Shown: positions 2,383 to 45,891 of the stretch, one piece after another | Layout: each line of letters begins with the position of its first letter | How positions within the stretch are numbered: position 1 is the first letter of the stretch | From: Dialister sp. CAG:486 | Lineage (GTDB): Bacteria; Bacteroidota; Bacteroidia; Bacteroidales; Paludibacteraceae | Reading direction: 5' to 3' | DNA: 46,241 nt | Assembly (NCBI GenBank): GCA_963635385.1 | Contig: CAVHGD010000009.1 | Location: forward strand, 1-46,241 | Notes under the pieces: generated by a model | What the model saw: only the letters and a program-made list of their open reading frames with translations | What the model was told of the DNA's origin: nothing | The model's database searches: none | Translations under genes and position numbers: made by a program

Positions 2383-3609
2383 ATGGCTATACATCATCCT
2401 TCGATACATGCCAATCTGCGCACACCTAAGGCAACGGAAGGGACAAGCTTTGTCATTCTGGTCGCCGTCGGGGTGTCGCACTTCTTGAACGACACCATTC
2501 AGTCGGTGATACCGGCTATCTACCCGATACTGAAAGAGAACTTTCAATTCAGTTTTGCACAGATAGGACTTATCGTGCTGTTCTTTCAGCTGGCGTCGTC
2601 GATCGTACAACCCGTGGTGGGATTCTACTCCGACCGCAAGCCTCACCCATACGCACTGACAACCGGCATGTGGCTCACGCTGGCAGGACTGATACTGCTC
2701 GCCTTTGCGAACAACTTAGTGCTGATAATCACTGCCGTAACGGTATTGGGATTCGGCTCTTCGATATTCCACCCCGAAGCCTCCCGCGTGGCACAGATAG
2801 CATCGGGCGGACGCAAGAGCCTCGCCCAATCGATATTCCAAGTGGGCGGGAATGCCGGCTGCGCCATCGGCCCGCTACTGGCAGCGTGGATGATACTCCC
2901 TTACGGGCAGACTGCCGTGTCGTGGGTGGGCGTGGTAGCCGTAATAGCCGCCATTCTACTATTCTGGGTAGGGCAATGGTATAGCAATGAGATAACTTAC
3001 CTATCGAATCGCCCCAAGAAGCAGGCGGGTGTGGCCTCTACCTACTCGAAAAAGAAAGTGCATTGGGCAATGGCGATACTGATTACGCTCATATTCTCGA
3101 AGTATATCTACATGTCGTGCATGACAAACTACTTCACGTTCTATCTGATGGACAAGTTCTCGCTATCGGTGCAGAATGCGCAATATTGCCTGTTTGCCGT
3201 GCTCGCCACCTCCGCCATCGGGACACTGGCAGGGGGCGCACTGGGCGACAAAGTGGGGCGCAAATATGTGATCCTAGGGTCTATCTTCGGGGCCGTGCCG
3301 TTTGCGCTGTTTATGCCGTACGTCGGATTGGGTTGGTGCGTGGCACTCGCCATCGTGGTAAGTCTGATTATTTCGTCCGCCTTCTCCTCCATACTGGTCT
3401 ATGCCACCGACTTGTATCCGACCAAAGTAGGCATGATTTCGGGACTGTTCTTCGGACTGATGTACGGCATTGCGGGAATCAGCTCCGCCTTCTTCGGGTG
3501 GCTCGCCGACAAGACAAGCATAGAATATATTTTCCATATCAGTACGCTGCTGCCGCTCATGGGAATCATTGCGGCCTTCTTGCCCAATCCGCAGAAGAAA
3601 CAAAAGTAA
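2383..3609 (+). CDS. fsr: MFS transporter, Fsr (fosmidomycin resistance) family
   Basis: 408 aa with about 12 hydrophobic segments. The N-terminal block SHFLNDTIQSVIPAIYPILKENFQFSFAQIGLIVLFFQLASSIVQPVVGFYSDRKP closely parallels my recollection of E. coli Fsr (SHLLNDMIQSLILAIYPLL...QLASSLLQPVVGYWTDK). Confidence 0.8.
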   Translation: MAIHHPSIHANLRTPKATEGTSFVILVAVGVSHFLNDTIQSVIPAIYPILKENFQFSFAQIGLIVLFFQLASSIVQPVVGFYSDRKPHPYALTTGMWLTLAGLILLAFANNLVLIITAVTVLGFGSSIFHPEASRVAQIASGGRKSLAQSIFQVGGNAGCAIGPLLAAWMILPYGQTAVSWVGVVAVIAAILLFWVGQWYSNEITYLSNRPKKQAGVASTYSKKKVHWAMAILITLIFSKYIYMSCMTNYFTFYLMDKFSLSVQNAQYCLFAVLATSAIGTLAGGALGDKVGRKYVILGSIFGAVPFALFMPYVGLGWCVALAIVVSLIISSAFSSILVYATDLYPTKVGMISGLFFGLMYGIAGISSAFFGWLADKTSIEYIFHISTLLPLMGIIAAFLPNPQKKQK

Positions 3610-4054: not shown

Positions 4055-6091
4055 ATGGAAGAACAGGAAAAGTATGATGGGTCGAGCATTCAAGTGCTCG
4101 AAGGATTGGAAGCAGTGCGCAAACGCCCTGCAATGTATATTGGCGATATTTCGCAAAAAGGTCTGCACCACTTGGTATATGAGGTGGTGGACAACTCAAT
4201 AGACGAGGCATTAGCCGGATTCTGCAACCATATTGAGGTAACCATAAACGAAGACAACTCAATAACCGTTCAAGATAACGGGCGTGGTATCCCCGTGGAT
4301 ATGCACCCCAAAGAGCACCGCAGCGCATTGGAAGTGGTGATGACCGTACTCCATGCCGGCGGTAAATTCAACAAAGACAGCTACAAAGTGTCCGGCGGTC
4401 TGCACGGTGTGGGCGTGAGCTGCGTGAATGCACTCTCGACCAAACTGCACGTGGAAGTATATCGTGACGGGAAAATATACATGCAAGAATATGCCAAAGG
4501 CAAGCCGACCTGCGAAGTGCATGAGATAGGCACCTACGGCAGCGAGCGTGGGACCGGTACATGCGTACAATTCTGGCCCGACGGAAGCATATTCACCGAA
4601 ACGGTATATCAGTACGACATACTGGCAAACCGTATGCGCGAATTGGCCTACCTGAATGCCGGCGTGAAGATAACGCTGACCGACCGCCGTCACCCCATCA
4701 CCAAAGAGCCGGAGGCTCTGCCCGACGGAGAAGCATCGGCTGAACAGAAAGGTGTGGTAGCAGCTGACGGGAAGCGATACAAAGGGGAGATTTACTACTC
4801 GGAGAAAGGCTTGAGCGAGTTTGTGCGCTATATAGAAGGCACTCGTACCCCGCTGATTTCGGAGATAATTCACCTCAACACCGACAAATACGGCACACCC
4901 GTAGAGGTGGCCATGATATACAACACCGACTTCAACGAGAATGTACACTCGTACGTGAACAATATCAACACGATAGAAGGCGGTACGCATGTGGCCGGAT
5001 TCCGTGCTGCCCTGACGCGTGTGATGAAAAAATACGCTGAAGACAGCAAGCTGCTGGAGAAAGCCAAGCTGAAAGACAAAGACGGAAACTCGGCCATTGA
5101 CCCGAACGATTTCCGTGAAGGTCTGACAGCCGTTATATCGGTGAAAGTGGCAGAGCCGCAATTTGAGGGACAGACCAAGACCAAACTCGGCAACTCGGAA
5201 GTGGCCGGTATGGTGTCGTCTGCCGTAAGCGAGGCCCTGACCAACTACTTGGAGGAGCACCCAGACGACGCAAGACGCATTGTGGAGAAAGTGATTCTTG
5301 CCGCACAAGCCCGAATCGCCTCGCGCAACGCACGCCAAAGCGTGCTACGTAAATCGCCTCTCGGCGGCGGCGGACTGCCCGGAAAGCTGTCGGACTGCTC
5401 GAGCAAAGACCCTGCAGAATGCGAGCTATTCCTCGTGGAGGGAGACTCGGCAGGCGGTACCGCCAAGAAAGGACGTGACCGTGTTCGCCAAGCCATCCTG
5501 CCGCTCCGTGGTAAGATTCTAAATGTAGAGAAAGCGATGGAGCACAAGGTGTTCGAGAGCGAAGAGGTGCGTAACATATTCACCGCACTGGGCATCACCT
5601 TCGGAACGGAAGAAGACCCCAAAGCACTGAACCTGAGCAAGATACGCTATCACAAAGTAATCATCATGGCCGATGCCGATGTGGATGGTGCGCACATTGC
5701 CACCCTGATTATGACGCTATTCTTCCGTCACATGAAGGAGGTAATCGAACAAGGACACCTCTACATAGCCATGGCACCGCTCTACCTCTGCTCGAAAGGC
5801 AGCGTAAAAGAGTACTGCTGGAACGACCAACAGCTGAACGACTTCATTCAGCGCTACGGTAACGGCAACGAGAACCAAGTGAAGGTTCAACGATACAAAG
5901 GTTTGGGTGAGATGTCGGATACGCAGCTCTGGGAGACCACTATGGACCCTGAGCGCCGTATGCTGAAGAAAGTGACCATCGAGAATGCCGCCGAAGCAGA
6001 CCGCACCATTGCCATGCTGATGGGAGATGATGTGGCTCCACGCCGTCAGTTTATCGAGGAAAACGCCACCTACGCAAATATCGATGCCTGA
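4055..6091 (+). CDS. gyrB: DNA gyrase subunit B
   Basis: 678 aa. It has the GHKL ATPase N-terminus (YDGSSIQVLEGLEAVRKRPAMYIGD, EVVDNSIDEA, DNGRGIP), a Toprim region (LVEGDSAGG, IMADADVDGAHI) and the GyrB tail (QRYKGLGEM...PRRQFIEENA). Confidence 0.95.
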   Translation: MEEQEKYDGSSIQVLEGLEAVRKRPAMYIGDISQKGLHHLVYEVVDNSIDEALAGFCNHIEVTINEDNSITVQDNGRGIPVDMHPKEHRSALEVVMTVLHAGGKFNKDSYKVSGGLHGVGVSCVNALSTKLHVEVYRDGKIYMQEYAKGKPTCEVHEIGTYGSERGTGTCVQFWPDGSIFTETVYQYDILANRMRELAYLNAGVKITLTDRRHPITKEPEALPDGEASAEQKGVVAADGKRYKGEIYYSEKGLSEFVRYIEGTRTPLISEIIHLNTDKYGTPVEVAMIYNTDFNENVHSYVNNINTIEGGTHVAGFRAALTRVMKKYAEDSKLLEKAKLKDKDGNSAIDPNDFREGLTAVISVKVAEPQFEGQTKTKLGNSEVAGMVSSAVSEALTNYLEEHPDDARRIVEKVILAAQARIASRNARQSVLRKSPLGGGGLPGKLSDCSSKDPAECELFLVEGDSAGGTAKKGRDRVRQAILPLRGKILNVEKAMEHKVFESEEVRNIFTALGITFGTEEDPKALNLSKIRYHKVIIMADADVDGAHIATLIMTLFFRHMKEVIEQGHLYIAMAPLYLCSKGSVKEYCWNDQQLNDFIQRYGNGNENQVKVQRYKGLGEMSDTQLWETTMDPERRMLKKVTIENAAEADRTIAMLMGDDVAPRRQFIEENATYANIDA

Positions 6092-6640: not shown

Positions 6641-7954
6641 ATGAATCTATTAGCAAATTGGAAAAGCGATACGCTGACTACCGCTCAACTCGAGCAGCGT
6701 ATAGAACAGGTTAAGAAAGACATCGTGCGCTATCGCGAGGTTGAGAAATCGGCTGAATTGGCAGAGTTCCTATCGCTGCAAAAGATAGTGGAAACCCCTG
6801 AGTTCCAAAAGAACAAGACCTATTTGCTGACACGGAAGTATAAGGATACGGAAGAATACAAGACGCTGAATCGCTATCGCAGCCTGAAGCTGGCGCCGAT
6901 ATTGCATATCTACTATCTGATACTATCGTATCCGAACTTCAAAGAATATTTGGAATTCGCAAAAAGCGAACGCTATGCGCTGCTGAAAGACAAAGCGGCC
7001 GTAAAAGAATCGGCAGAGCTGAAGAAATTCCAATTCATTGACAAATCGTGGTCGCTCCGCAACTTCCGTCGCTGCGAGAAATCGCAAGACGTGCAGGACT
7101 ATCTGCGACTGAAAGTGGAGGTAAAGACCGAGGACTTTATCAAACGAAACGCATTCTGGGCAGACCCGAAGCGTTGGTACACTACCGAGGAGGGAAAGCA
7201 AGATGTGCGCTATCTGGAGCTGAAGGCCAATCCGGATATTCAGTTCTTCCTCGCTCAAGACGCAAAGAAAATAGCCGAATGGGAAAGCTACAAAACGCTG
7301 TACGATGAGGAGTTTGAGCTGAGCAACCTCTCACAGACCGGCTGGAAAGCAGGATTCTACTACACCAACAAGAACCTGAAAACCAACCACTCGTACGACA
7401 ACGAGCTGCAAGCCTACAATCAAGGCAAAAACAGCCATATCAGCAACAGCGCACTATGCGTTGAGACCAAAAAAGAAAACGCTACCGCTACGGCTTGGCA
7501 CCCTGTCAAAGGATTCATCACCAAAGAGTATCAATGGACGGGCGATGTGCTGCAAGCGGCTGAAGCATTCCAAGGCACTGACGGACTCTTTATGGCCAAA
7601 GTACGGGTATCGGGCGCTGCACACGCTGCCGTATATTTAGCTACCGGCGAGCGTACGCCGCTCATCAAACTGATGCAATGGAACGGCAAAGAAGTATCGA
7701 CCGGTCTGCGCACCGAGAAAGAAGAAGGACACACGACCATCGGCGGCATCCGTCCGGAGCAATGGTATGTGTATTCGGTGCAAATTACTCCCAAAGAAAT
7801 AGTTTGGTATATCAATAACCAAGAAGTGATGCGAGTAGCCAACACGCTACAGGGCGTGTCGCTCTACCCCGCTGTGGCGACCTATCTGCCGCAGGACGCA
7901 AATGCCGGCACGGGCAAAGTGGAAATAGACTGGGTACGCGTATATCACAACTAA
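6641..7954 (+). CDS. Hypothetical protein: helical repeat N-half plus concanavalin-like (GH16/LamG-like) C-terminal domain
   Basis: 437 aa. The C-terminus ...GTGKVEIDWVRVYHN is typical of the last strand of GH16/ConA-like beta-sandwiches. I saw no ExDxxE catalytic motif and no signal peptide. Coding is likely; the function is uncertain. Confidence 0.5.
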   Translation: MNLLANWKSDTLTTAQLEQRIEQVKKDIVRYREVEKSAELAEFLSLQKIVETPEFQKNKTYLLTRKYKDTEEYKTLNRYRSLKLAPILHIYYLILSYPNFKEYLEFAKSERYALLKDKAAVKESAELKKFQFIDKSWSLRNFRRCEKSQDVQDYLRLKVEVKTEDFIKRNAFWADPKRWYTTEEGKQDVRYLELKANPDIQFFLAQDAKKIAEWESYKTLYDEEFELSNLSQTGWKAGFYYTNKNLKTNHSYDNELQAYNQGKNSHISNSALCVETKKENATATAWHPVKGFITKEYQWTGDVLQAAEAFQGTDGLFMAKVRVSGAAHAAVYLATGERTPLIKLMQWNGKEVSTGLRTEKEEGHTTIGGIRPEQWYVYSVQITPKEIVWYINNQEVMRVANTLQGVSLYPAVATYLPQDANAGTGKVEIDWVRVYHN

Positions 7955-19519: not shown

Positions 19520-20254
19520 CTATTTAGCGTTTTGCACAATAGCGTCAAGCTTCTCGGCCATCGACTTCACCTGCTCCGACAACTCGGACAGCGTATTCTC
19601 GATGGCGGCCGCCGACTCCGCCGTCGTCAGCCGGACTACCCCCTGACGGTCGTGCTGACCCGCCATCATATTCAGCGTCGTTGTCAATTCCTCCAGCCGG
19701 ACATTGATTTGCTCGATATCATCGCTTGCCTGACGGACGCTCGCCACCAAAGTGTCGATATTCAGGTCGGTCTTATCGGCCGAATCGGCGGATTGGAGCT
19801 GCTTGAGCTCATCGGTATGGAGCTGCTTTAGCTCGGCGGTACGAAGCTCCACCTCATGGCGCAGATTCTCTATGGCCGACACCACTCGGAGGACCATCTC
19901 GGAACGTTCCATCTCCCATTTCGCCTTTTTATCCAACTTGTCAAACCTACGATTCACCACGTGGCTCAAAATCAACGAGCCAATCATACCACAGATGGAG
20001 GTAAAAAAGGCGGTCTGCAAGCCCGAAAGCAACTCGGGGATACTGGCATCGATATCCGACACGTTGAAATTCGCCAAACCGACCGTGATACCAATGAAAG
20101 TGCCCAACACGCCCAAAGTCGAGACCAAGGCGGGGAACTGCTCAATCCATTGCCTGTTGGCCTGTATTTCACTATCTTCTTTCATGAAAAGGTACGCACG
20201 AGCCGTCAAAAACGCACCTACAATAAACATACAAAGCAGAATCGTTAATAGCAT
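19520..20254 (-). CDS. MotA/TolQ/ExbB-family proton-channel protein with a ~140-aa C-terminal coiled-coil tail
   Basis: 244 aa. It has three hydrophobic segments and the family signatures STLGVLGTFIGITVGL and GLQTAFFTSICGMIGSLIL. Residues ~105-244 are heptad-like and charged (ELRTAELKQLHTDELKQLQS...). Confidence 0.75.
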   Translation of the reverse strand: MLLTILLCMFIVGAFLTARAYLFMKEDSEIQANRQWIEQFPALVSTLGVLGTFIGITVGLANFNVSDIDASIPELLSGLQTAFFTSICGMIGSLILSHVVNRRFDKLDKKAKWEMERSEMVLRVVSAIENLRHEVELRTAELKQLHTDELKQLQSADSADKTDLNIDTLVASVRQASDDIEQINVRLEELTTTLNMMAGQHDRQGVVRLTTAESAAAIENTLSELSEQVKSMAEKLDAIVQNAK

Positions 20255-20438
20255 AATACTTTCTTTATTTTGTTTTTCTTTTGGGACAGTTTCGTTTTTA
20301 GGGGCTGTCGGGGGGGGCAGTGTTTATGCGGGAGACTTGAGAGTATGCTTATGCTAATTGGGAGTCGAGGCCGGTAGGGAGATGCGATAGTATCAATGAG
20401 CAGCGACAGCAAGCAAAGATAGCCACAAAAATAACAAG

Positions 20439-20470
20439 CAAAGATACAATAAAAAATCCGAATATCCAAG
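20439..20470 (-). promoter_or_regulatory. Candidate promoter(s) for the MotA-like operon
   Basis: On the minus strand TATCTTTG occurs twice (plus-strand CAAAGATA at 20414-20421 and 20439-20446). The distal box has CTTG 20 nt upstream. The boxes are about 160-190 nt upstream of the ATG at 20254. Confidence 0.4.
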
Positions 20471-20687: not shown

Positions 20688-22883
20688 CTATTTTATTTCC
20701 ATACCGGTTGCGGTATAGGTCTTGTCACCGTTTTTGATGAGGATTTGACCGTTGCGCAGAATCTTATAGGCGTGAGACACCTGTTCCGTTTCCGTATTTT
20801 CAATGGCCGTTTCCGTCTCAATGAAGTTGGAGAACAAACACCATCCTTTTGCCGATTGGTAAGCGGACTTCGTACCACGCGGAATGTATATCGGAGTATC
20901 TAGATGTACACCTATAACAAAATAATATTGCCAGGAAACAGCACCTTCTAATACCGGTGGCGTTTCAGTTAAAATAGTCAGAGATTTAATTTTGGAACAC
21001 TTATAAAACGCCATATCTCCAATAGTTGTTACACTATGAGGGATAGTGATAGACCCTGTTGCAGCACTACTACATGCCAATAGTGTCGACCGTGTTGCAT
21101 CCTTATAGACTAAATAACCATCCACATACCCATTCATGCTTCTTGCATCCCATGGGGCATCTACTGAATCCGTTCCATTGTAAACAATATTTGGAACATA
21201 TTCAAAAGCAGAGTATCCAATAGTCTTTACACTATTTGGAATAGTGATTGTGGTAAGAGCGGTGCAATCTGCAAAGGCTAGATCTCCTATACTTGTTACA
21301 CTGTTTGGAATAGTGATAGACCCTGTTGCGGCACTACTGCATGCCAATAGTGTCGACCGTGTTGCATCTTTATAAACAAAATAGCCATCCACATACCCAT
21401 TTCTGCTTTTTTCATACCATTCTCCATATACAGAATCCGATCCGCTGTAAATGATATTTGGAACATTTTGAAAGGCCGCATCTCCAATAGTCTTTACACT
21501 ATTTGGGATTGTGAGGGAAATAAGAGCAGTACAATAAAAGAAAGCGCCGCCTCCAATGTCTGTTACACTATTTGGGATTGTTAGGCTCGTTAAAGCGCTA
21601 CACTCCGAAAATGCACCGTCTCCAATGCTTGTTACACCATTTGGGATGGTTGTTGATTTGCAACCTTTTACTAATGTATTCGTAGCTGTTTCTATAATGG
21701 CATTACAGTTATTACGGCTATCATACTTCGGATTTCCTTCTTCTACCACAATCGAAGAAAGATTATTACTGAAATACAAAACACAAGAGCCATAATCATC
21801 TACAATACTTGTTAGACTTTTGGGAATAGTAATAGAAGTCCAATCAATGTAGTCACAGAAAGCACCAGATTCTATACTTTGTACGCCATCCGGAATAAAT
21901 GTAGATTTGCAACCAAGTATTAATTTGTTCGTGGCAGTTTCTATGATAGCATTACATTTATCACGGCTATCATATTTCGGATTCCCTTTTTCAACCACAA
22001 TCGAAGAAAGACTACTACAGCCCCCAAAAGCATAATCCCCAATACTTGTTACACTGCTTGGGATGGTGATAGAATGCAGACCGACGCAATTGGTAAAAGC
22101 ACAATCTTCTATACTCGTTACACCCTCCGGAATAGTTGAATTTCTGCAACCTTGTACTAATTTATTCGTAGCTGTTTCTATGATGGCATTACAATTATCA
22201 CGACTATCATAATTCGGATTGCCTTCTTCTACCACAATCGAAGAAAGACTGATACAATCATCAAAAGGATATTGTGACTCATAAAATACATATTCATCAT
22301 CTACTGCGTTCCCAATACTTGTTACACTATTTGGGATGGTGACAGAGGTAAGAGCTGTGCATTCAGCAAAGGCGTTATTTCCTATACTTGTTACACTGTT
22401 AGGTATAGTGACAGAGGTAAGAGCTGTGCATTCAGCAAAGGCTCTATTTCCTATAGTCCGGACACCTTCCATATTGATAGAGGTAAGATTAGCACAGTCT
22501 GCAAAAGTTGATTTTTCAATGCTCGCAACACTATTAGGAATGGTAATTGAGGAGATACCAGACCCGTAAAATGCGTGATCTCCAATACTCGTTACGCTAT
22601 TGGGAATAGTAATAGAAATAAGTTCACTACAGTCCCCAAATGCATACTTGCGTATTCGCGTAACGCTATAGGATATCCCATTATATGTCACAGTGGATGG
22701 AATAGTAACCGTTGTGTAATGATAATGAGAAAAAGCATCTTCTATCGTATCTGACAATTCTACCGTATAGGGTGCAACACTACTTGTAATTTTATAAAAC
22801 AAGCCATCGTACTTAAAATCATACGCAAAAATGGCGGTGGTGGTAAATAATGCCACCAATAATGATAGGAATTTTGTTTTCAT
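20688..22883 (-). CDS. BspA-type leucine-rich repeat (LRR_5-like) surface protein with signal peptide
   Basis: The ORF track starts at 22913. I prefer the ATG at 22883 (MKTKFLSLLVALFTTTAIFA). It has about 23-aa repeats of the form IPNSVTSIGxxAFxxCxxLTSxT throughout, plus larger repeated modules (SSIVVEEGNP.YDSR.NCNAIIETATN.L..GC three times). Confidence 0.85.
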   Translation of the reverse strand: MKTKFLSLLVALFTTTAIFAYDFKYDGLFYKITSSVAPYTVELSDTIEDAFSHYHYTTVTIPSTVTYNGISYSVTRIRKYAFGDCSELISITIPNSVTSIGDHAFYGSGISSITIPNSVASIEKSTFADCANLTSINMEGVRTIGNRAFAECTALTSVTIPNSVTSIGNNAFAECTALTSVTIPNSVTSIGNAVDDEYVFYESQYPFDDCISLSSIVVEEGNPNYDSRDNCNAIIETATNKLVQGCRNSTIPEGVTSIEDCAFTNCVGLHSITIPSSVTSIGDYAFGGCSSLSSIVVEKGNPKYDSRDKCNAIIETATNKLILGCKSTFIPDGVQSIESGAFCDYIDWTSITIPKSLTSIVDDYGSCVLYFSNNLSSIVVEEGNPKYDSRNNCNAIIETATNTLVKGCKSTTIPNGVTSIGDGAFSECSALTSLTIPNSVTDIGGGAFFYCTALISLTIPNSVKTIGDAAFQNVPNIIYSGSDSVYGEWYEKSRNGYVDGYFVYKDATRSTLLACSSAATGSITIPNSVTSIGDLAFADCTALTTITIPNSVKTIGYSAFEYVPNIVYNGTDSVDAPWDARSMNGYVDGYLVYKDATRSTLLACSSAATGSITIPHSVTTIGDMAFYKCSKIKSLTILTETPPVLEGAVSWQYYFVIGVHLDTPIYIPRGTKSAYQSAKGWCLFSNFIETETAIENTETEQVSHAYKILRNGQILIKNGDKTYTATGMEIK
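22319..22456. repeat. Near-perfect 69-bp tandem duplication inside the LRR gene
   Basis: GACAGAGGTAAGAGCTGTGCATTCAGCAAAGGC occurs at 22341-22373 and 22410-22442 (period 69 nt, one 23-aa LRR unit). Confidence 0.8.
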
Positions 22884-24932: not shown

Positions 24933-24964
24933 CAAAGATACTACTTTTGACGGAACTATGCAAA
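24933..24964 (-). promoter_or_regulatory. Canonical minus-strand promoter (TTTG-N20-TATCTTTG) about 410 nt upstream of the lipoprotein ATG
   Basis: Plus-strand CAAAGATA at 24933-24940 and CAAA at 24961-24964. Confidence 0.45.
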
Positions 24965-41973: not shown

Positions 41974-42891
41974 TTACTTCAGCGAGACAAATCGGTAGTT
42001 GATTTGGCTGCCCATTTCCACCACCATATAGTATGGATGCGGTTCCGGGTCTTGGCAAGTATTGACAATGATACACGTGGTACCCGCATAGTTTGTCACT
42101 TGGCGGCTATGGTCGTGCCCGCACCAATACATATCAACGCCGTACTTCCCCATCAGCCCCGTAATCTCGTACGTTTCCTCCATCGCATAGTTGGAGGTAT
42201 GCCCCTGCGAGGCGTCCTGCTTGTAGAGATGGGTGTGCGTAAAGAGAATAATATGGCGATAGTGCTGTTTGCTCTTGTCTTTCAGCAAGTTACGTAGCCA
42301 TTTGAGTTGCGCCGTACCGAGCGTGCCTTCTGCCGAATCGAAAGAGATATAAAGGTCAAGCTTCTCCCCCGTAGTATGGTCGTAAGTGTCAAACCAATAC
42401 GCTGAAGTGTGAAAACGGGAACGGAAATCCGCCCACTGATTGAAATAGATGTCGTGGTTGCCGGGCGTGATAAACAGCGTATCGTGGTGCGACACAGCAG
42501 GTTCGGTCTGCAGCACCTGATAGGCGTTTTCGTAATAATGCGCATTGATAAGGTCGCCCAAATGGATGGCAAAGGAGCAAAGGGTGTCCGTCTTGTAGTC
42601 CAACACAAAACGCTCTAAGTTATGGTGCGTGGTGTCGATATGCGAGTCGGTGCAGACATAGACCCGGTAGTCGGCGGGAACGGCAAGGTGCATCTCGCCC
42701 CGCTGCTCGTTGTACGCCATCGACTCCGAGAAACGAGTTGCCACCTCCGGACTCGTACCATTGAACATACCCGGAACATCATAATTCGGCATACTGCAGG
42801 CCGCCAAGAGAAGTGTTGCTAACGGCAAGAGAATGTGTAGTTTATCTCTCAACGCAAGATAGAAAAGTCGTATATTATGAGGATTTTGCAT
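41974..42891 (-). CDS. Metallophosphoesterase (calcineurin-like) lipoprotein
   Basis: 305 aa. It has a LLAAC lipobox-like signal and the motifs VCTDSHID, HLGDLI, GNHD, FTHTH and CGHDH. Confidence 0.85.
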   Translation of the reverse strand: MQNPHNIRLFYLALRDKLHILLPLATLLLAACSMPNYDVPGMFNGTSPEVATRFSESMAYNEQRGEMHLAVPADYRVYVCTDSHIDTTHHNLERFVLDYKTDTLCSFAIHLGDLINAHYYENAYQVLQTEPAVSHHDTLFITPGNHDIYFNQWADFRSRFHTSAYWFDTYDHTTGEKLDLYISFDSAEGTLGTAQLKWLRNLLKDKSKQHYRHIILFTHTHLYKQDASQGHTSNYAMEETYEITGLMGKYGVDMYWCGHDHSRQVTNYAGTTCIIVNTCQDPEPHPYYMVVEMGSQINYRFVSLK

Positions 42892-42902
42892 AGCGGTTCA
42901 AG

Positions 42903-43649
42903 TTAGAAAGTGTACGTAAAACCGGTGCGGAGATAGGCGGCGTAGAAAGTGGCATTGAGGTGAAACATACCCGTCGGTTTGCACTCCGCCGACAGCAGTA
43001 CCCGCCAATGCGAATCGACATCGTAGTGCCCGCCGAGCAGGAAAATGGGTTGCCACATACGCTCCATTTGGTAGTCGTCGATATTGGCCATACAAGCGGA
43101 GATATTCCAGCGGCAAGTCTGCGGACGGCAGAACACCTCAAAGCGATAGAGCAGATTGAACGGCTCGCAGTTGAACACCTCCGTCGTGCGCCATTCTCTG
43201 TCCCAAGACGCCATCACACGGCTGAACATACCCACTTGCACCGACACATAGTCCATCCGATAGCCCACGGATAGGGCCGTGCAGAGGTCGTGCTGACGGC
43301 TACGCGCTACAGCTTTGTAGAGCAACTCCGTCTCGGCAAATAGTTCGCCGACGGGCAAAGCAAAACGAGGGCGCAATATAGCAGCCCCCGTATAGACATT
43401 GGCGGTGGATAGTTGGAAATTGACCTGCAAATCGAAATGCGGGTTGATGGGCATAAGCGACTGAATATCAAGATTGCCGTAATGCTCCCAAGTACGATTG
43501 TAGGCATACTCGCCCATCACGGAGAGTTGGTAGCCCTGCGTGCCGAAGCCCCGCAGCGAATGACCGTCTCGAGCGGTGTATTCTTTCGGCGCAGCCCACA
43601 GCCCAACCGCAAGAAGCCAAGCGAAAAGAGTAGATAAAACTTTATGCAT
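42903..43649 (-). CDS. Hypothetical outer-membrane beta-barrel-like protein
   Basis: 248 aa. It has a signal peptide (LLAVGLWAAP), an alternating hydrophobic pattern, and a C-terminal ...GFTYTF aromatic end. Confidence 0.5.
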   Translation of the reverse strand: MHKVLSTLFAWLLAVGLWAAPKEYTARDGHSLRGFGTQGYQLSVMGEYAYNRTWEHYGNLDIQSLMPINPHFDLQVNFQLSTANVYTGAAILRPRFALPVGELFAETELLYKAVARSRQHDLCTALSVGYRMDYVSVQVGMFSRVMASWDREWRTTEVFNCEPFNLLYRFEVFCRPQTCRWNISACMANIDDYQMERMWQPIFLLGGHYDVDSHWRVLLSAECKPTGMFHLNATFYAAYLRTGFTYTF

Positions 43650-43847
43650 TCGTATATCTTTTTACCGTATTGGATGGCGTATCGGTAGTAAATCGTTCTA
43701 ACGTGCTGATATTCTGCAATATATATAGCAAAACTATCTTATACTAAATGATTCCACTTCCGATTTTCAAAGAATATCGGGAGTAGAGCTTCCAATTTTT
43801 CGAGAAAATTAGGAGTAGCACTTCCGCTATTCAAAGAATATCAAGCG

Positions 43848-43879
43848 CAAAGGTACAGATTTTTCTCCGTTTGGACAAA
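43848..43879 (-). promoter_or_regulatory. Canonical minus-strand promoter (TTTG-N20-TACCTTTG) about 190 nt upstream of the 42903-43649 gene
   Basis: Plus-strand CAAAGGTA at 43848-43855 and CAAA at 43876-43879. Confidence 0.5.
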
Positions 43880-43975
43880 TTAGGCAAAAGATTGTTGGAA
43901 AACATCGTAAAACAGCACTACAAAGGTAAAACCATTCACCCTATCGAATGCACAATAGTAGAAATACTATTTCTA

Positions 43976-44003
43976 AAAGAAAAAAGCGGCCACGTGGGTC
44001 GCT
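43976..44003 (-). terminator. Possible minus-strand terminator (GC hairpin around the CCACGTGG palindrome plus U-run)
   Basis: AGCGGCCACGTGGGTCGCT (43985-44003) forms an imperfect hairpin. The plus-strand A-rich run at 43976-43985 gives UUUUUUCUUUU on the minus strand. Confidence 0.35.
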
Positions 44004-44213
44004 ACGACAGTTCAATTAACATCATACCCCTCGCGAGATATCATACGTTCTAATCGCACCGCAGAGATACAGCATTTATCCTACCCGCACAAAAAACTCT
44101 TGCGCTTGGTAAGTATGAAGGCGAGCCACATTGTTAAGAGGTAGTCGCAAAAAGTCCACCTCACGATGGTACACTGGCTTATTCAAACACAAGAGTTATA
44201 AGAATTTACGCTG

Positions 44214-44244
44214 CAAAGATACACCTTTTCTCTCACATTGCAAA
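44214..44244 (-). promoter_or_regulatory. Promoter P1 (TTTG-N19-TATCTTTG)
   Basis: Plus-strand CAAAGATA at 44214-44221 and CAAA at 44241-44244. Confidence 0.5.
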
Positions 44245-44271
44245 ATTTTATCATAAATTTCGCAAAGAAGG

Positions 44272-44306
44272 CGCTAAATAAATGAGAGGAGATAACTCTC
44301 CTCTCA
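44272..44306 (-). terminator. Intrinsic terminator T1
   Basis: TGAGAGGAG (44283-44291) pairs with CTCCTCTCA (44298-44306), loop ATAACT. The minus strand continues UUUAUUUAG. Confidence 0.55.
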
Positions 44307-44416
44307 ATAAGCACACTCACCGTAGTAGCTGCTTTCTCGAATTTAATCGGTTGTTACGATGTGACCCGTGCAAAGGTCGTACAAAGCAAATGGAAAAGAG
44401 AGTTGCACCTCTCAAA
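44275..44416 (-). ncRNA. Candidate ~140-nt small RNA (unit Y1: promoter P2 to terminator T1)
   Basis: It is bounded by a canonical promoter and a hairpin plus U-run on the same strand. The minus-sense segment has no ATG. It has internal hairpins (GAGAG-GUGCAA-CUCUC). It is duplicated as Y2. Confidence 0.35.
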
Positions 44417-44423
44417 TCCACTG

Positions 44424-44454
44424 CAAAGATACACAATTTCTTTCAGATCGCAAA
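44424..44454 (-). promoter_or_regulatory. Promoter P2 (TTTG-N19-TATCTTTG)
   Basis: Plus-strand CAAAGATA at 44424-44431 and CAAA at 44451-44454. Confidence 0.5.
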
Positions 44455-44639
44455 ATTTTACCATAAATTTCGCAAAAAATGGGCGTGCAAAGATACAGCA
44501 TTTATTCCCCCCGCATAAAAAACTCTTGCGCTTGGTAAGTATGAAGGCGAGCCCCATTGTTAAGCGGGGGTCGCAAAAAGTCCACCTCACGATGGTACAC
44601 TGGCTTACTCAAACACAAGAGTTGTAAGAATTTATGTTG

Positions 44640-44670
44640 CAAAGATACACCATTTCTTTCACAACGCAAA
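44640..44670 (-). promoter_or_regulatory. Promoter P3 (TTTG-N19-TATCTTTG)
   Basis: Plus-strand CAAAGATA at 44640-44647 and CAAA at 44667-44670. Confidence 0.5.
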
Positions 44671-44697
44671 ATTTTATCATAAATTCCGCAAAGAATG

Positions 44698-44731
44698 GGA
44701 TAAAAAATGAGAGGAGATAACTCTCCTCTCA
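44698..44731 (-). terminator. Intrinsic terminator T2
   Basis: TGAGAGGAG (44708-44716) pairs with CTCCTCTCA (44723-44731). The minus strand continues UUUUUUAUCCC. Confidence 0.6.
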
Positions 44732-44842
44732 ATAAGTACACTCACCGTAGTGGCTACTTTCACGAACTTAATCGGTTGCTTACGATGTGACCTGTGCAAA
44801 GGTCGGACAAAGCAAGATGGAAATAGAGTTGCACCTCTCAAA
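44700..44842 (-). ncRNA. Candidate ~140-nt small RNA (unit Y2: promoter P4 to terminator T2)
   Basis: It is a paralogous copy of Y1 with the same promoter/terminator architecture. Confidence 0.35.
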
Positions 44843-44849
44843 TCCGCTG

Positions 44850-44881
44850 CAAAGATACACCATTTTTCTCACCCTCGCAAA
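44850..44881 (-). promoter_or_regulatory. Promoter P4 (TTTG-N20-TATCTTTG)
   Basis: Plus-strand CAAAGATA at 44850-44857 and CAAA at 44878-44881. Confidence 0.5.
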
Positions 44882-44973
44882 TCTCGGGACAAAATTGTCG
44901 TACTTTTCCCTATTATTCAGTTTTACAATACTAAAAATTGCGTTTCTAAACGGGAACTATAGCTGAACAAAAA

Positions 44974-45891
44974 CTATGGTTCGTTTATATAATGTTCAAG
45001 TAGGGTCGTTAACTTCTGTGCTCCACACTCATTCAGGTGGTCGGCATCAAAGAAATCGTCCGCTACAAAATTCGAATCCCGTAAACTATTAATATAGACT
45101 ACATTCGGATAACGTTGCTCCCACTGTTGACAAGCGGCTATAAACTCATTGCATTGCTCTTTCTCTAACAGGTCGTAATACGAATGATATGTAGGCGTGG
45201 TAAGCAAAATGACGTTCACTCCTCGCTGCTGACAGTCTTGTAATATGCGCTCAATCCGTTCCATATTGTCTGCCACATATTTTGTATCCGCATGAGTGTG
45301 CCGTTTCGCCGCCCGTACTCCGCTGTCGTATAAAGCAGTATCTCTGTTGGCCTTTGAGTAACCTAAGCCAAATCCATATTGATCGCATGAAATATAGAAA
45401 AGTTTCTCTTTTGACGTCAGCGAGGGTATCACATTGCGTATTTTTCCCTTTGTAGCTAATTCAAGATTATACCGAAACTCTCCCCTGTGGTAGTTGCACC
45501 CCATATAGATGCAATAGCCCTTCACTCGCCAATACTCGCTTCCGTCTTCCAATTCGCTCCGCAGCGAACAATAATCTACCGGCAGAATCACATATTGCAA
45601 CGAATCGCAGCGGGTGGCATATTGAAAATACAGAAAGTAATCGTACTTGATGCTTTGGGATATATAGCCCAAATTAAAAGCAGGGCGAGAAAAGAATTCC
45701 GGACGAATGCCGTAATACCCGTGCGAGGAACCGAAACTAAGTATCTTCACGCACTCTCTGTTTTCCGCCATCCACTGGTCCTCGTAGCTATAATCATTCG
45801 GAATACGCCGCAAAGACCACTCGCAAAAAGCGACCATACACCCAACCGGCAAGAACACGAGAAAAACGACTTGCAATAGAAACTTCTTCAT
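44974..45891 (-). CDS. SGNH/DltD-like membrane-anchored protein, partner of the MBOAT acyltransferase
   Basis: 305 aa. It has an N-terminal TM, FGSSHG (block I Ser-like) and FDADHLN (DxxH block V-like). It lies immediately downstream of the MBOAT gene. Confidence 0.6.
   Translation of the reverse strand: MKKFLLQVVFLVFLPVGCMVAFCEWSLRRIPNDYSYEDQWMAENRECVKILSFGSSHGYYGIRPEFFSRPAFNLGYISQSIKYDYFLYFQYATRCDSLQYVILPVDYCSLRSELEDGSEYWRVKGYCIYMGCNYHRGEFRYNLELATKGKIRNVIPSLTSKEKLFYISCDQYGFGLGYSKANRDTALYDSGVRAAKRHTHADTKYVADNMERIERILQDCQQRGVNVILLTTPTYHSYYDLLEKEQCNEFIAACQQWEQRYPNVVYINSLRDSNFVADDFFDADHLNECGAQKLTTLLEHYINEP

Follow-up and report, generated by a model that had tools for sequence, protein, structure and literature searches.

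Classical type III antitoxins (ToxI, CptI and TenpI) are made up of ~36-nt direct repeats which lie upstream of the toxin gene, share one operon with it and are processed by the toxin, and type I systems on Bacillus prophages (txpA/RatA, bsrG/SR4) use convergent, 3'-overlapping antisense RNAs against toxins that are small hydrophobic peptides. Bacteroidales, for their part, have acquired interbacterial defence clusters. Closer to the locus described here are the MuF polymorphic toxins, whose genes normally have immunity open reading frames (ORFs) just after them, with around one in ten having no small ORF in this position (PMC5576092). Immunity to these toxins has been described as protein only (PMC5576092, PMC11699363); experiment has established that a hydrolase-plus-small-protein arrangement neutralises the Bacteroides prophage MuF toxin Bxa, and arrays of orphan immunity genes have been named 'polyimmunity loci' (PMC11699363). 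A literature search for an RNA partner listed no paper in which the terms 'RNA antitoxin' and 'polymorphic toxin' both occur. Here, we have analysed a 46,241-nt stretch of bacterial DNA (contig CAVHGD010000009.1; hereafter the window, with positions counted from its first letter), whose minus strand carries an array of predicted small RNA (sRNA) genes at 44083–44881. We hold with high confidence that there are four such genes from two phage-derived families, A and B, each family being strictly linked to one type of MuF domain.

Read along the minus strand, the predicted genes follow one another in the order A2, B2, A1 and B1, with two RNA bodies alternating behind near-identical promoters. Gene A2 (~145 nt; 44699–44846) scores 166.9 bits against the A-family covariance model (R1) with a fold z-score of −3.9, and its fold comprises a 5' hairpin (loop GUGCAA), a central hairpin (loop UUGCAC), a small CGA/UCG hairpin, a variable hairpin and a terminator (44708–44731) followed by a U run. 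Its sister A1 (44274–44420; terminator 44283–44306) scores 173.4 bits with a fold z-score of −4.9. Gene B2 (~120 nt; 44509–44642, with the body at ~44636–44515, given that the span of the covariance model includes the last few promoter bases) reaches 141 bits against the B-family model (R2) with a fold z-score of −4.1, and it also aligns with B RNAs from phages; a 14-bp closing stem followed by U6 encloses a core formed by a hairpin with a GUGA loop and the hairpin GCGACCCCCGCUUAACAAUGGGGCUCGC. The corresponding values for B1 (44083–44216; body ~44210–44090) are 139.7 bits and −1.4. All four genes lie on the minus strand, the only strand with which the G-U pairs are compatible. Each unit ends in an intrinsic terminator, made of a 10-bp stem and then T6 or TTTATTT in the A units and of the closing stem and U run in the B units, and sites that combine a terminator-like hairpin with a T-run number nine in the region against 3.2 expected. 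A search of Rfam 15, which had been proposed as a check on the locus, gave no match anywhere in the window at gathering thresholds and chance-level matches only (E ≥ 0.1) within 43600–45000, and a tRNA/tmRNA search found none. As had been claimed for 0.8 kb of it, the 1.3-kb gap between the minus-strand genes at 44974–45891 and 42903–43649 holds no credible ORF. Several small peptides were considered and set aside, as none is conserved among homologs: MGLAFILTKRKSF.. in B, that of an 8-aa ORF in A, and that of an ATGA-coupled MRGD.. ORF which runs antisense to A. The array is, on these grounds, one of four predicted structured sRNA genes, independently transcribed and from two families absent from Rfam.

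The promoters ahead of these genes are unusually regular. A pattern scan of the minus strand for TTTG-N19/20-TAnnTTTG gave five exact matches within 43848–44881, and these are the five promoters named in the original prediction (43848–43879, 44214–44244, 44424–44454, 44640–44670 and 44850–44881). Across the window there are ten exact −33/−7 matches, where dinucleotide-preserving shuffles give an expectation of 0.56 and none of 100 shuffles reached ten. The five sites fit, by sequence, the Bacteroidota primary-sigma promoter (−33 TTTG and −7 TAnnTTTG, ~19–21 nt apart); in Segatella copri >70% of primary transcription start sites have the −7 box and 15% have the −33 box (bioRxiv 10.1101/2024.04.05.588293). 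The predicted promoter of A2 (44850–44881; TTTG-N20-TATCTTTG) is homologous by alignment to the A promoters of phage loci, that of B2 (44640–44670) is a copy of this A-type promoter according to the alignment of the sub-repeat, and those of A1 (44424–44454) and B1 (44214–44244) are exact matches to the pattern. The 424-bp tandem duplication that had been described around them is recovered by Tandem Repeats Finder with slightly different dimensions (a 426-bp unit in 1.9 copies with 90% matches, 44061–44865, and a weaker internal period of 216). A ~65-bp sub-repeat had likewise been assigned to the last four promoters, and this is true of three of them, where it is ~62 bp long (44212–44273, 44422–44483 and 44638–44699; 85–90% identity; spacing 210 and 216 bp); the promoter at 44850–44881 shares only the promoter-proximal 35–40 nt of it because it is situated at the edge of the array. 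Of the two interpretations offered at that time, a tandem array of small independent transcription units agrees with what we find, since each phased promoter would lead into a structured RNA of 120–145 nt closed by an intrinsic terminator, and stand-alone units of the same kind recur elsewhere. The earlier reading did not mention the terminator-like hairpin that closes each unit, nor a degenerate third promoter copy behind each B gene, and it could not recognise that two separate RNA families are present, that their source is phage DNA and that they have a link to MuF toxin cassettes.

Family A could be followed well beyond the window. An exact 21-mer of A matched Prevotella sp. P5-108 and a metagenome-assembled genome of S. 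copri, and a conserved 25-mer matched two metagenome contigs and one viral contig from IMG/VR. Exact-pattern scans of this kind were sparse (three genomes, two metagenomes and one viral contig), and the family was then widened through a neighbouring protein and through R1, which was built from seven A copies and recovered A in many further loci; a search for related loci by a single protein returned only the same viral contig. Homologs with their own promoter and terminator are present at L002, L004–L007, L009, L011, L013, L015, L017, L020 and L022, and at two of these, L002 and L004, A is a solo gene equipped in this way. Over 14 sequences and six helices, 97.4% of predicted pairs can form and 17 of 31 pairs are changed on both sides in a compensatory manner, in an alignment fitted by the covariance model, which favours structure; an independent MAFFT/RNAalifold run recovered the same helices. 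None of 500 shuffles reached this level of covariation, and sliding the 3' partners lowers pairing to 41–59%. The terminator helix covaries among homologs, as do all five pairs of the central hairpin, whose UUGCAC loop is nearly invariant. Loops and linkers such as GACCUUUGCACGGGUCACAUCGUAA are also near-invariant, and the helices are preserved by compensatory changes across phages whose proteins are 40–77% identical. No ORF is conserved in A on either strand, with ORFs broken or absent in several members. The combination of compensatory change with the lack of a conserved ORF is that expected of a structured non-coding RNA, and we assign family A to this class by comparative sequence analysis. 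The loops GUGCAA (5' hairpin) and UUGCAC are exact complements (for example, 44829–44834 and 44785–44790 on the minus strand of the window), and in the most divergent copy, from L017, they are replaced by GUGGA and UCCAC. This suggests a loop-loop contact, be it a kissing-loop, a pseudoknot or dimerisation via the palindromic UGCA, with only two variant sequences bearing upon it. The two window copies differ by ~10%, including pair-preserving changes (U-A versus C-G in hairpin 4, and U-G versus U-A in hairpin 3), and both score as high against R1 as phage copies do. The part of the S. copri catalogue from differential RNA sequencing that was available to us (El Mouali 2024; 63 sRNAs) tabulates coordinates without sequences; six 11–14-mers derived from A and B had no match in its supplements, and none of the Northern probe primers inspected resembles A or B by eye.

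The phage loci place these RNAs in a consistent setting. Family A is found in the phage head module at L005 (the same viral contig as L007, L008 and L043), L006, L009, L011, L013, L015 and L017, where the order is a portal gene, a MuF/SPP1-gp7-like head-morphogenesis gene, A on the opposite strand, a small conserved protein, and then the scaffold and major capsid genes. The A gene is convergent to the MuF gene, and its terminator overlaps the MuF stop codon by ~8–11 nt. The encoded MuF proteins are polymorphic, with a conserved N-terminal part of ~300 aa followed by different C-terminal domains, which include at least an A-type (CdiA_C-like), a B-type (phrog_23416), an ADP-ribosyltransferase, further types and short forms. 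Matches of the N-terminal part to known families are weak (PF04233 at 20.8–22.6 bits against a cut-off of 29.6; phrog_595 also weakly), and it is 48–82% identical to that of proteins bearing ADP-ribosyltransferase toxin domains (PF03496). An N-terminal MuF region within a head module, carrying variable C-terminal domains, is the layout of a MuF polymorphic toxin cassette, and we predict these loci to be such cassettes. The slot that separates the MuF gene from the scaffold genes has A or B as its sole cassette-specific element. The loci establish, at the level of sequence comparison, an origin of both families in temperate Prevotella/Segatella phages.

It is the association between RNA and toxin domain that we consider most telling. 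A hidden Markov model of the C-terminal domain from A loci matches every A-bearing locus and no other. Family A is present in 10/10 distinct loci with the A-type domain and in 0/12 with another type (Fisher's exact p 1.5e-6, a value which overstates independence given that the loci are phylogenetically related), and at least eight loci with short MuF forms also have no A. Family B is present in 3/3 loci with its own domain type and in 0/19 others. Furthermore, identity between A RNAs follows identity between the C-terminal domains (Spearman 0.68, Mantel p 0.003) and not that between the N-terminal parts (0.14), and the C-terminal and N-terminal parts are themselves uncorrelated (0.12). Since the RNA tracks the C-terminal and not the N-terminal part, the domain and the RNA travel as one cassette. 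The slot is followed by a small plus-strand gene (M..KRYIKVTPKGE..) that is homologous under every C-terminal domain type and therefore is not a domain-specific partner. No conserved ORF is found in the A-type and B-type slots, so these loci have no candidate for a cognate immunity protein there. Inside the head module of L005 (~7051–7707) we also noticed, by eye from the translation only, a QueC-like protein, which would suggest 7-deazaguanine modification of the phage DNA. At L011, a second promoter-RNA-terminator unit of ~105 nt (4270–4420, minus strand) stands upstream of A behind a duplicate of the same promoter, showing tandem sRNA units with a duplicated promoter within a phage slot; it has no similarity to B and may represent a third family of slot RNAs.

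Family B was traced from L018, where the slot has no A and contains a promoter, an RNA and a terminator, the 3' half of the RNA aligning with B at a score of 34 against 16.6 ± 2 for shuffles. The MuF protein of this locus (P0007) ends in a different C-terminal domain (phrog_23416), and a compact promoter-RNA-terminator gene fills the slot of L052 (P0047) and L054 (P0024), two further loci whose MuF proteins end in this type of domain. Their RNAs share the B core including GCGACCCCCGCTTAA[C/T]AATGGGGCT, in which L054 is identical to B2 and L052 is one base off. Matches to the R2 model are limited to the window (two of them), L003 and these three separate phage loci, and their scores of 97–143 bits make the sequence homology clear. 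Only six sequences in four lineages are available to judge the structure. They retain the core hairpins, and of the 23 predicted pairs 9 are changed on both sides, for the most part within the closing stem or terminator, where the alignment is poor. Family A and the phage B RNAs have the promoter type and the first transcript bases (GCAGCGGAUU) in common. A long-range pairing in B between CCCCCGC and GCGGGGGG just 3' of the U run, with apparent covariation between B1 and B2, was rejected, as L003 joins a B2-type left arm to a B1-type right arm and the pairing is broken.

Among A-type domains, P0038 reaches 28.5 bits against PF18451 (CdiA_C; cut-off 26.6) and other members 14–21 bits. Searched against PDB sequences, the profile of the domain matches only chain A of 4g6v (E 0.006), and an AlphaFold2 model of the isolated domain (predicted local distance difference test 86.9; predicted template modelling score, pTM, 0.83) has the same chain as its top and only significant Foldseek match (E 6.9e-4, probability 1.0, template modelling (TM) scores 0.45/0.53). 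Entry 4g6v is the CdiA-CT/CdiI complex of Burkholderia pseudomallei, the toxin of which is a tRNase with a restriction-endonuclease-like fold. The A-type domain is, with moderate confidence from these models, CdiA-CT(Bp1026b)-like and a predicted nuclease. A model of the whole 352-aa protein (pTM 0.54) gave no significant fold match. A first positive result from hhalign for homology between the A-type and B-type domains proved an artefact of A-type sequences in the B alignment, and none is detectable in a clean run.

In related phages the same slot is occupied by immunity genes. Loci of the ADP-ribosyltransferase type have in it, in the same orientation, a convergent ORF of ~100 aa, an ORF of ~260 aa and small ORFs. 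At L021, where the MuF domain is PF03496, the ~260-aa slot gene is an ADP-ribosylglycohydrolase (PF03747), and L029, L032 and L044 resemble it by gene layout rather than by family search; a consensus promoter on the minus strand of the slot was found for L021 and L032. Other C-terminal types carry a convergent gene for a small protein (83 aa in L035, ~85 aa in L036). The cassettes are thus akin to published MuF toxin/immunity cassettes (PMC5576092; Bxa, PMC11699363) in having an N-terminal MuF module with swappable C-terminal toxin domains and an antidote locus directly after the toxin gene inside the head-morphogenesis module, and the ADP-ribosyltransferase-type relatives carry the published hydrolase-plus-small-protein arrangement itself. 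They differ in that two domain types have a structured non-coding RNA, and no protein gene, in the slot.

How the RNA genes came to lie in the chromosome can be read from a short relic of a phage MuF-toxin gene 3' end on the plus strand (44657–44710, reading ..KFYHKFRKEWDKK*), recognised by tblastn and DNA alignments. It is 71% identical over 17 aa to residues 351–367 of P0031 (tblastn E 0.011) and homologous over 30–48 nt of DNA to the MuF gene ends of L002, L006 and L009. The relic (~45 nt) sits directly after each A terminator, with further copies at ~44231–44285 and 44455–44483, and forms the upstream half of the sub-repeat, the A promoter being the downstream half; the same relic-plus-promoter module precedes B as well as A. 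Degenerate third promoter copies follow both B genes on the minus strand. That after B1 (44062–44095) reads TTTG-N20-TATCTCTG, with an intact −33 box and the −7 box TATCTCTG at 44062–44069, as seen from the sequence and by comparison with the L002 promoter, and that after B2 (44488–44520) has an intact −7 box (TATCTTTG, 44488–44495) and a poor −33 box. These copies may drive a transcript of ~85 nt, or they may be left over from the rearrangement that placed B behind the A promoter. Taken together, the relic, the shared promoter module and the third promoter copies identify the array as a phage fragment that lost everything but its RNA genes, gained a B body and was afterwards duplicated as a 426-bp A-B unit. 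The genes flanking the array are cellular, and no MuF gene exists in the 46-kb window, where tblastn with 120 MuF homologs finds only the 17-aa relic. The array has, then, the make-up of an orphan immunity array, in which putative antidote genes stand with no cognate toxin gene within the window. A syntenic locus, L003 (92–98% identical over aligned blocks), has a single A-B unit, though in a short-read metagenome-assembled genome with an N run at 3130–3192 where the repeat may be collapsed. A further contig, L001 (Logan SRR13434623), ends inside B1; short-read assemblies break or gap near the repeat and may under-report the copy number of the 426-bp unit.

Other chromosomal copies have kept a toxin gene. 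At L020 and L022–L025, an N-terminally truncated MuF-toxin gene (351/352 aa) is followed by A at a single conserved position in the chromosome, with a DUF2461 gene on one side and an S41 peptidase gene on the other (the module spans 2501–3699 in L020). A similar module in L002 is flanked by a type I restriction-modification specificity gene and by an AAA_14/DUF4143 gene. All of these have the look of bipartite toxin/RNA modules that lack a protein antidote. Between two variants of the truncated protein the ratio of non-synonymous to synonymous divergence (dN/dS) is 0.17, and 0.15 for the C-terminal domain, and the protein has therefore been maintained by purifying selection. Synonymous divergence in the same comparison is 1.2 for the C-terminal domain and 0.22 for the N-terminal part, which hints at cassette exchange. 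Upstream of the AAA_14/DUF4143 gene, L002 has several direct repeats of TTACT(C/T)A(C/A)(T/A)TTTGCGTATT (5640–5760). The solo A of S. copri at L004 adjoins a DUF3791-DUF3990-DUF3791 trio (4312–5371); a role as a toxin-like ADP-ribosyltransferase has been proposed for DUF3990, and should this hold, L004 could be another conflict-system neighbourhood.

Considering position and linkage together, we propose, at somewhat less than an even chance, that A and B are antidotes to their cognate MuF toxin domains. If so, they would most likely act in trans by binding the toxin protein in the fashion of type III antitoxins, because both sequence and fold are kept far more closely than antisense pairing would require and because solo and orphan copies exist, and the chromosomal array would be an orphan RNA-immunity cluster of two specificities directed at the toxins of related incoming phages. 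For the locus as a whole, an orphan array of phage-derived sRNA genes serving as RNA antidotes to MuF toxins is the best explanation we can offer, at only slightly less than an even chance. It is a bolder claim, and a doubtful one, that A and B would stand as the first immunity factors made of RNA in a polymorphic toxin system, neutralising their targets directly and domain by domain, and collected away from the toxin in chromosomal arrays. Several observations count against a role as antidotes, beginning with the fact that position and linkage are its basis. The loci are related, so that both the Fisher and Mantel p-values overstate independence, and the co-inheritance of toxin domain and RNA could partly stem from where recombination breakpoints fall. 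The nuclease assignment is moderate (TM 0.45–0.53, with most members under the Pfam cut-off), the B-type domain has no recognisable fold or family, the window B RNAs differ from phage B RNAs at both ends, the inner hairpin of B1 is weakened (CUACC/GUGG), and the architecture fits neither classical type III nor type I toxin-antitoxin systems.

The last of these points can be made more precise. As in type III systems (ToxIN, CptIN, TenpIN; AvcID, PMC10511110), a structured RNA would neutralise a protein toxin, there is a linkage to phages and defence, and the window has tandem copies; here, however, the RNA is 120–145 nt long, multi-hairpin and convergent, with its own promoter and as a single unit per phage, and the putative toxin, to which the RNA would bind, is a domain fused to a capsid protein. 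Type I systems offer a likeness in the convergent RNA gene whose 3' end overlaps that of the toxin gene, and in the prophage location, whereas the candidate toxin here is a nuclease-like domain of ~160 aa in a protein of 350–540 aa, the overlap is ~10 nt at the stop codon, and the RNA is conserved in sequence and fold beyond antisense need. Orphan immunity arrays similarly cluster antidote genes of several specificities in the chromosome with no toxins, probably against non-self toxins; known ones encode proteins, whereas those here would encode RNAs of phage origin, not from type VI secretion or contact-dependent inhibition systems. Tandem paralogous sRNA genes (PrrF1/PrrF2, OmrA/OmrB, Qrr, LhrC1-5; FopS in Bacteroides thetaiotaomicron, PMC7366714) are also arranged head to tail, each with its own promoter and terminator and with an origin in duplication, but they base-pair with host mRNAs, whereas here two unrelated RNA bodies alternate behind copies of one promoter and both trace to phage toxin cassettes.

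The convergent orientation of the RNA genes and the ~8–11 nt by which the terminator overlaps the MuF stop codon would also suit cis-antisense regulators of the phage late operon, which must read through the slot to reach the conserved structural genes downstream. RNAs with strong promoters of their own, like morons expressed in lysogeny, could pair with this read-through mRNA and silence the toxin and capsid genes, the window copies being relics, or they could act in trans as antisense agents of superinfection exclusion. We regard this as unlikely, as pure cis-antisense action would leave sequence and fold free to vary, yet in A loops and linkers stay near-invariant and helices are preserved by compensatory change; it supplies the solo chromosomal copies (window, L003 and L004) with no phage mRNA to pair with, and it gives no reason to expect the RNAs to be strictly tied to the type of toxin domain and not to the genes downstream. 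Stand-alone promoter-RNA-terminator units are, on the other hand, typical of Bacteroidota sRNAs, S. copri having 27 intergenic ones (bioRxiv 10.1101/2024.04.05.588293), and unpaired conserved stretches such as CUUGCUUUG and CCGAUUAA could be seed regions, so that A and B might be ordinary trans-acting regulators, phage morons that pair with host mRNAs in lysogenic conversion, with their adjacency to toxin domains incidental. The solo chromosomal copy at L004 is in keeping with this. It would nevertheless leave unexplained the 10/10 versus 0/12 association, the pairing of a second RNA family with a second domain type, the replacement by protein immunity genes in other domain types and the chromosomal toxin-plus-A modules, and we therefore think it quite unlikely.

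Survival of the toxin-gene relic, the degenerate third promoter copies, the weakened B1 hairpin and the single A-B unit of L003 could all be accommodated by a decaying, functionless prophage remnant in which the 426-bp duplication arose from neutral slippage or unequal crossing-over. A remnant seems very unlikely to us given that all four promoters are still exact matches to the consensus, that both A copies score like phage copies against R1, and that the divergence of A1 from A2 includes pair-preserving changes; the loss of all phage parts save the RNA genes is, moreover, the pattern expected under selection for the RNAs. Finally, the original prediction had also allowed that the promoters might be a stack jointly feeding the downstream operon (43649–41974). 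All five promoters are co-oriented with it and some read-through of the terminators is conceivable. Against this, a strong hairpin and U run closes each unit, a further terminator-like hairpin (GCGACCCACGUGGCCGC and then a U run; 43976–44002, hairpin 43986–44002, minus strand, from reading and folding the sequence) lies in the unique spacer, and the operon has its own promoter at 43848–43879 (minus strand; TTTG-N20-TACCTTTG), 190 nt upstream of the ATG at 43649. With four terminators and this hairpin intervening, we conclude that the operon is not fed by a promoter stack; the same RNA units also occur at unrelated loci with different or convergent neighbours, and we consider a joint promoter function extremely improbable.

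On a conservative reading, this work adds two new sRNA families absent from Rfam and an example of a phage fragment that was stripped until only RNA genes were left and was amplified afterwards. In widespread gut Prevotella/Segatella phages, two types of toxin domain are accompanied by a dedicated, conserved and highly structured RNA where an immunity protein gene usually sits. If A and B do prove to be antidotes, the reach of RNA antitoxins would widen from small toxin-antitoxin modules to include the polymorphic toxins that phages carry in their capsids, orphan RNA arrays would be a new kind of acquired defence, and part of the explanation might be at hand for the roughly one in ten MuF toxin genes that have no small ORF after them (PMC5576092). 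This would be a plausible and directly testable new kind of toxin antidote.

The remaining features lie around the array. The unique spacer (43880–44060) has no match in any phage locus, and the hairpin within it is where the ~85-nt transcript from the third promoter copies, should it exist, would end. The operon promoter lies outside the repeat, is unrelated to the A promoter and is conserved in L001 and L003. The operon itself (41974–43649, minus strand) encodes a 248-aa protein with no Pfam match and a 305-aa metallophosphoesterase, and its genes are neighbours of the RNA array rather than part of it. In its predicted 5' leader of ~190 nt, a 32-bp unit is repeated 2.8 times with 67% matches (43756–43843), again conserved in L001 and L003, and the inverted repeat within each unit (ACTTCCGAT..ATCGGGAGT) is suggestive of hairpins or of a site where a regulator binds. 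The other five exact −33/−7 matches in the window, at 436–467 and 21878–21909 on the plus strand and at 19942–19970, 20414–20442 and 24933–24964 on the minus strand, are presumably ordinary gene promoters.

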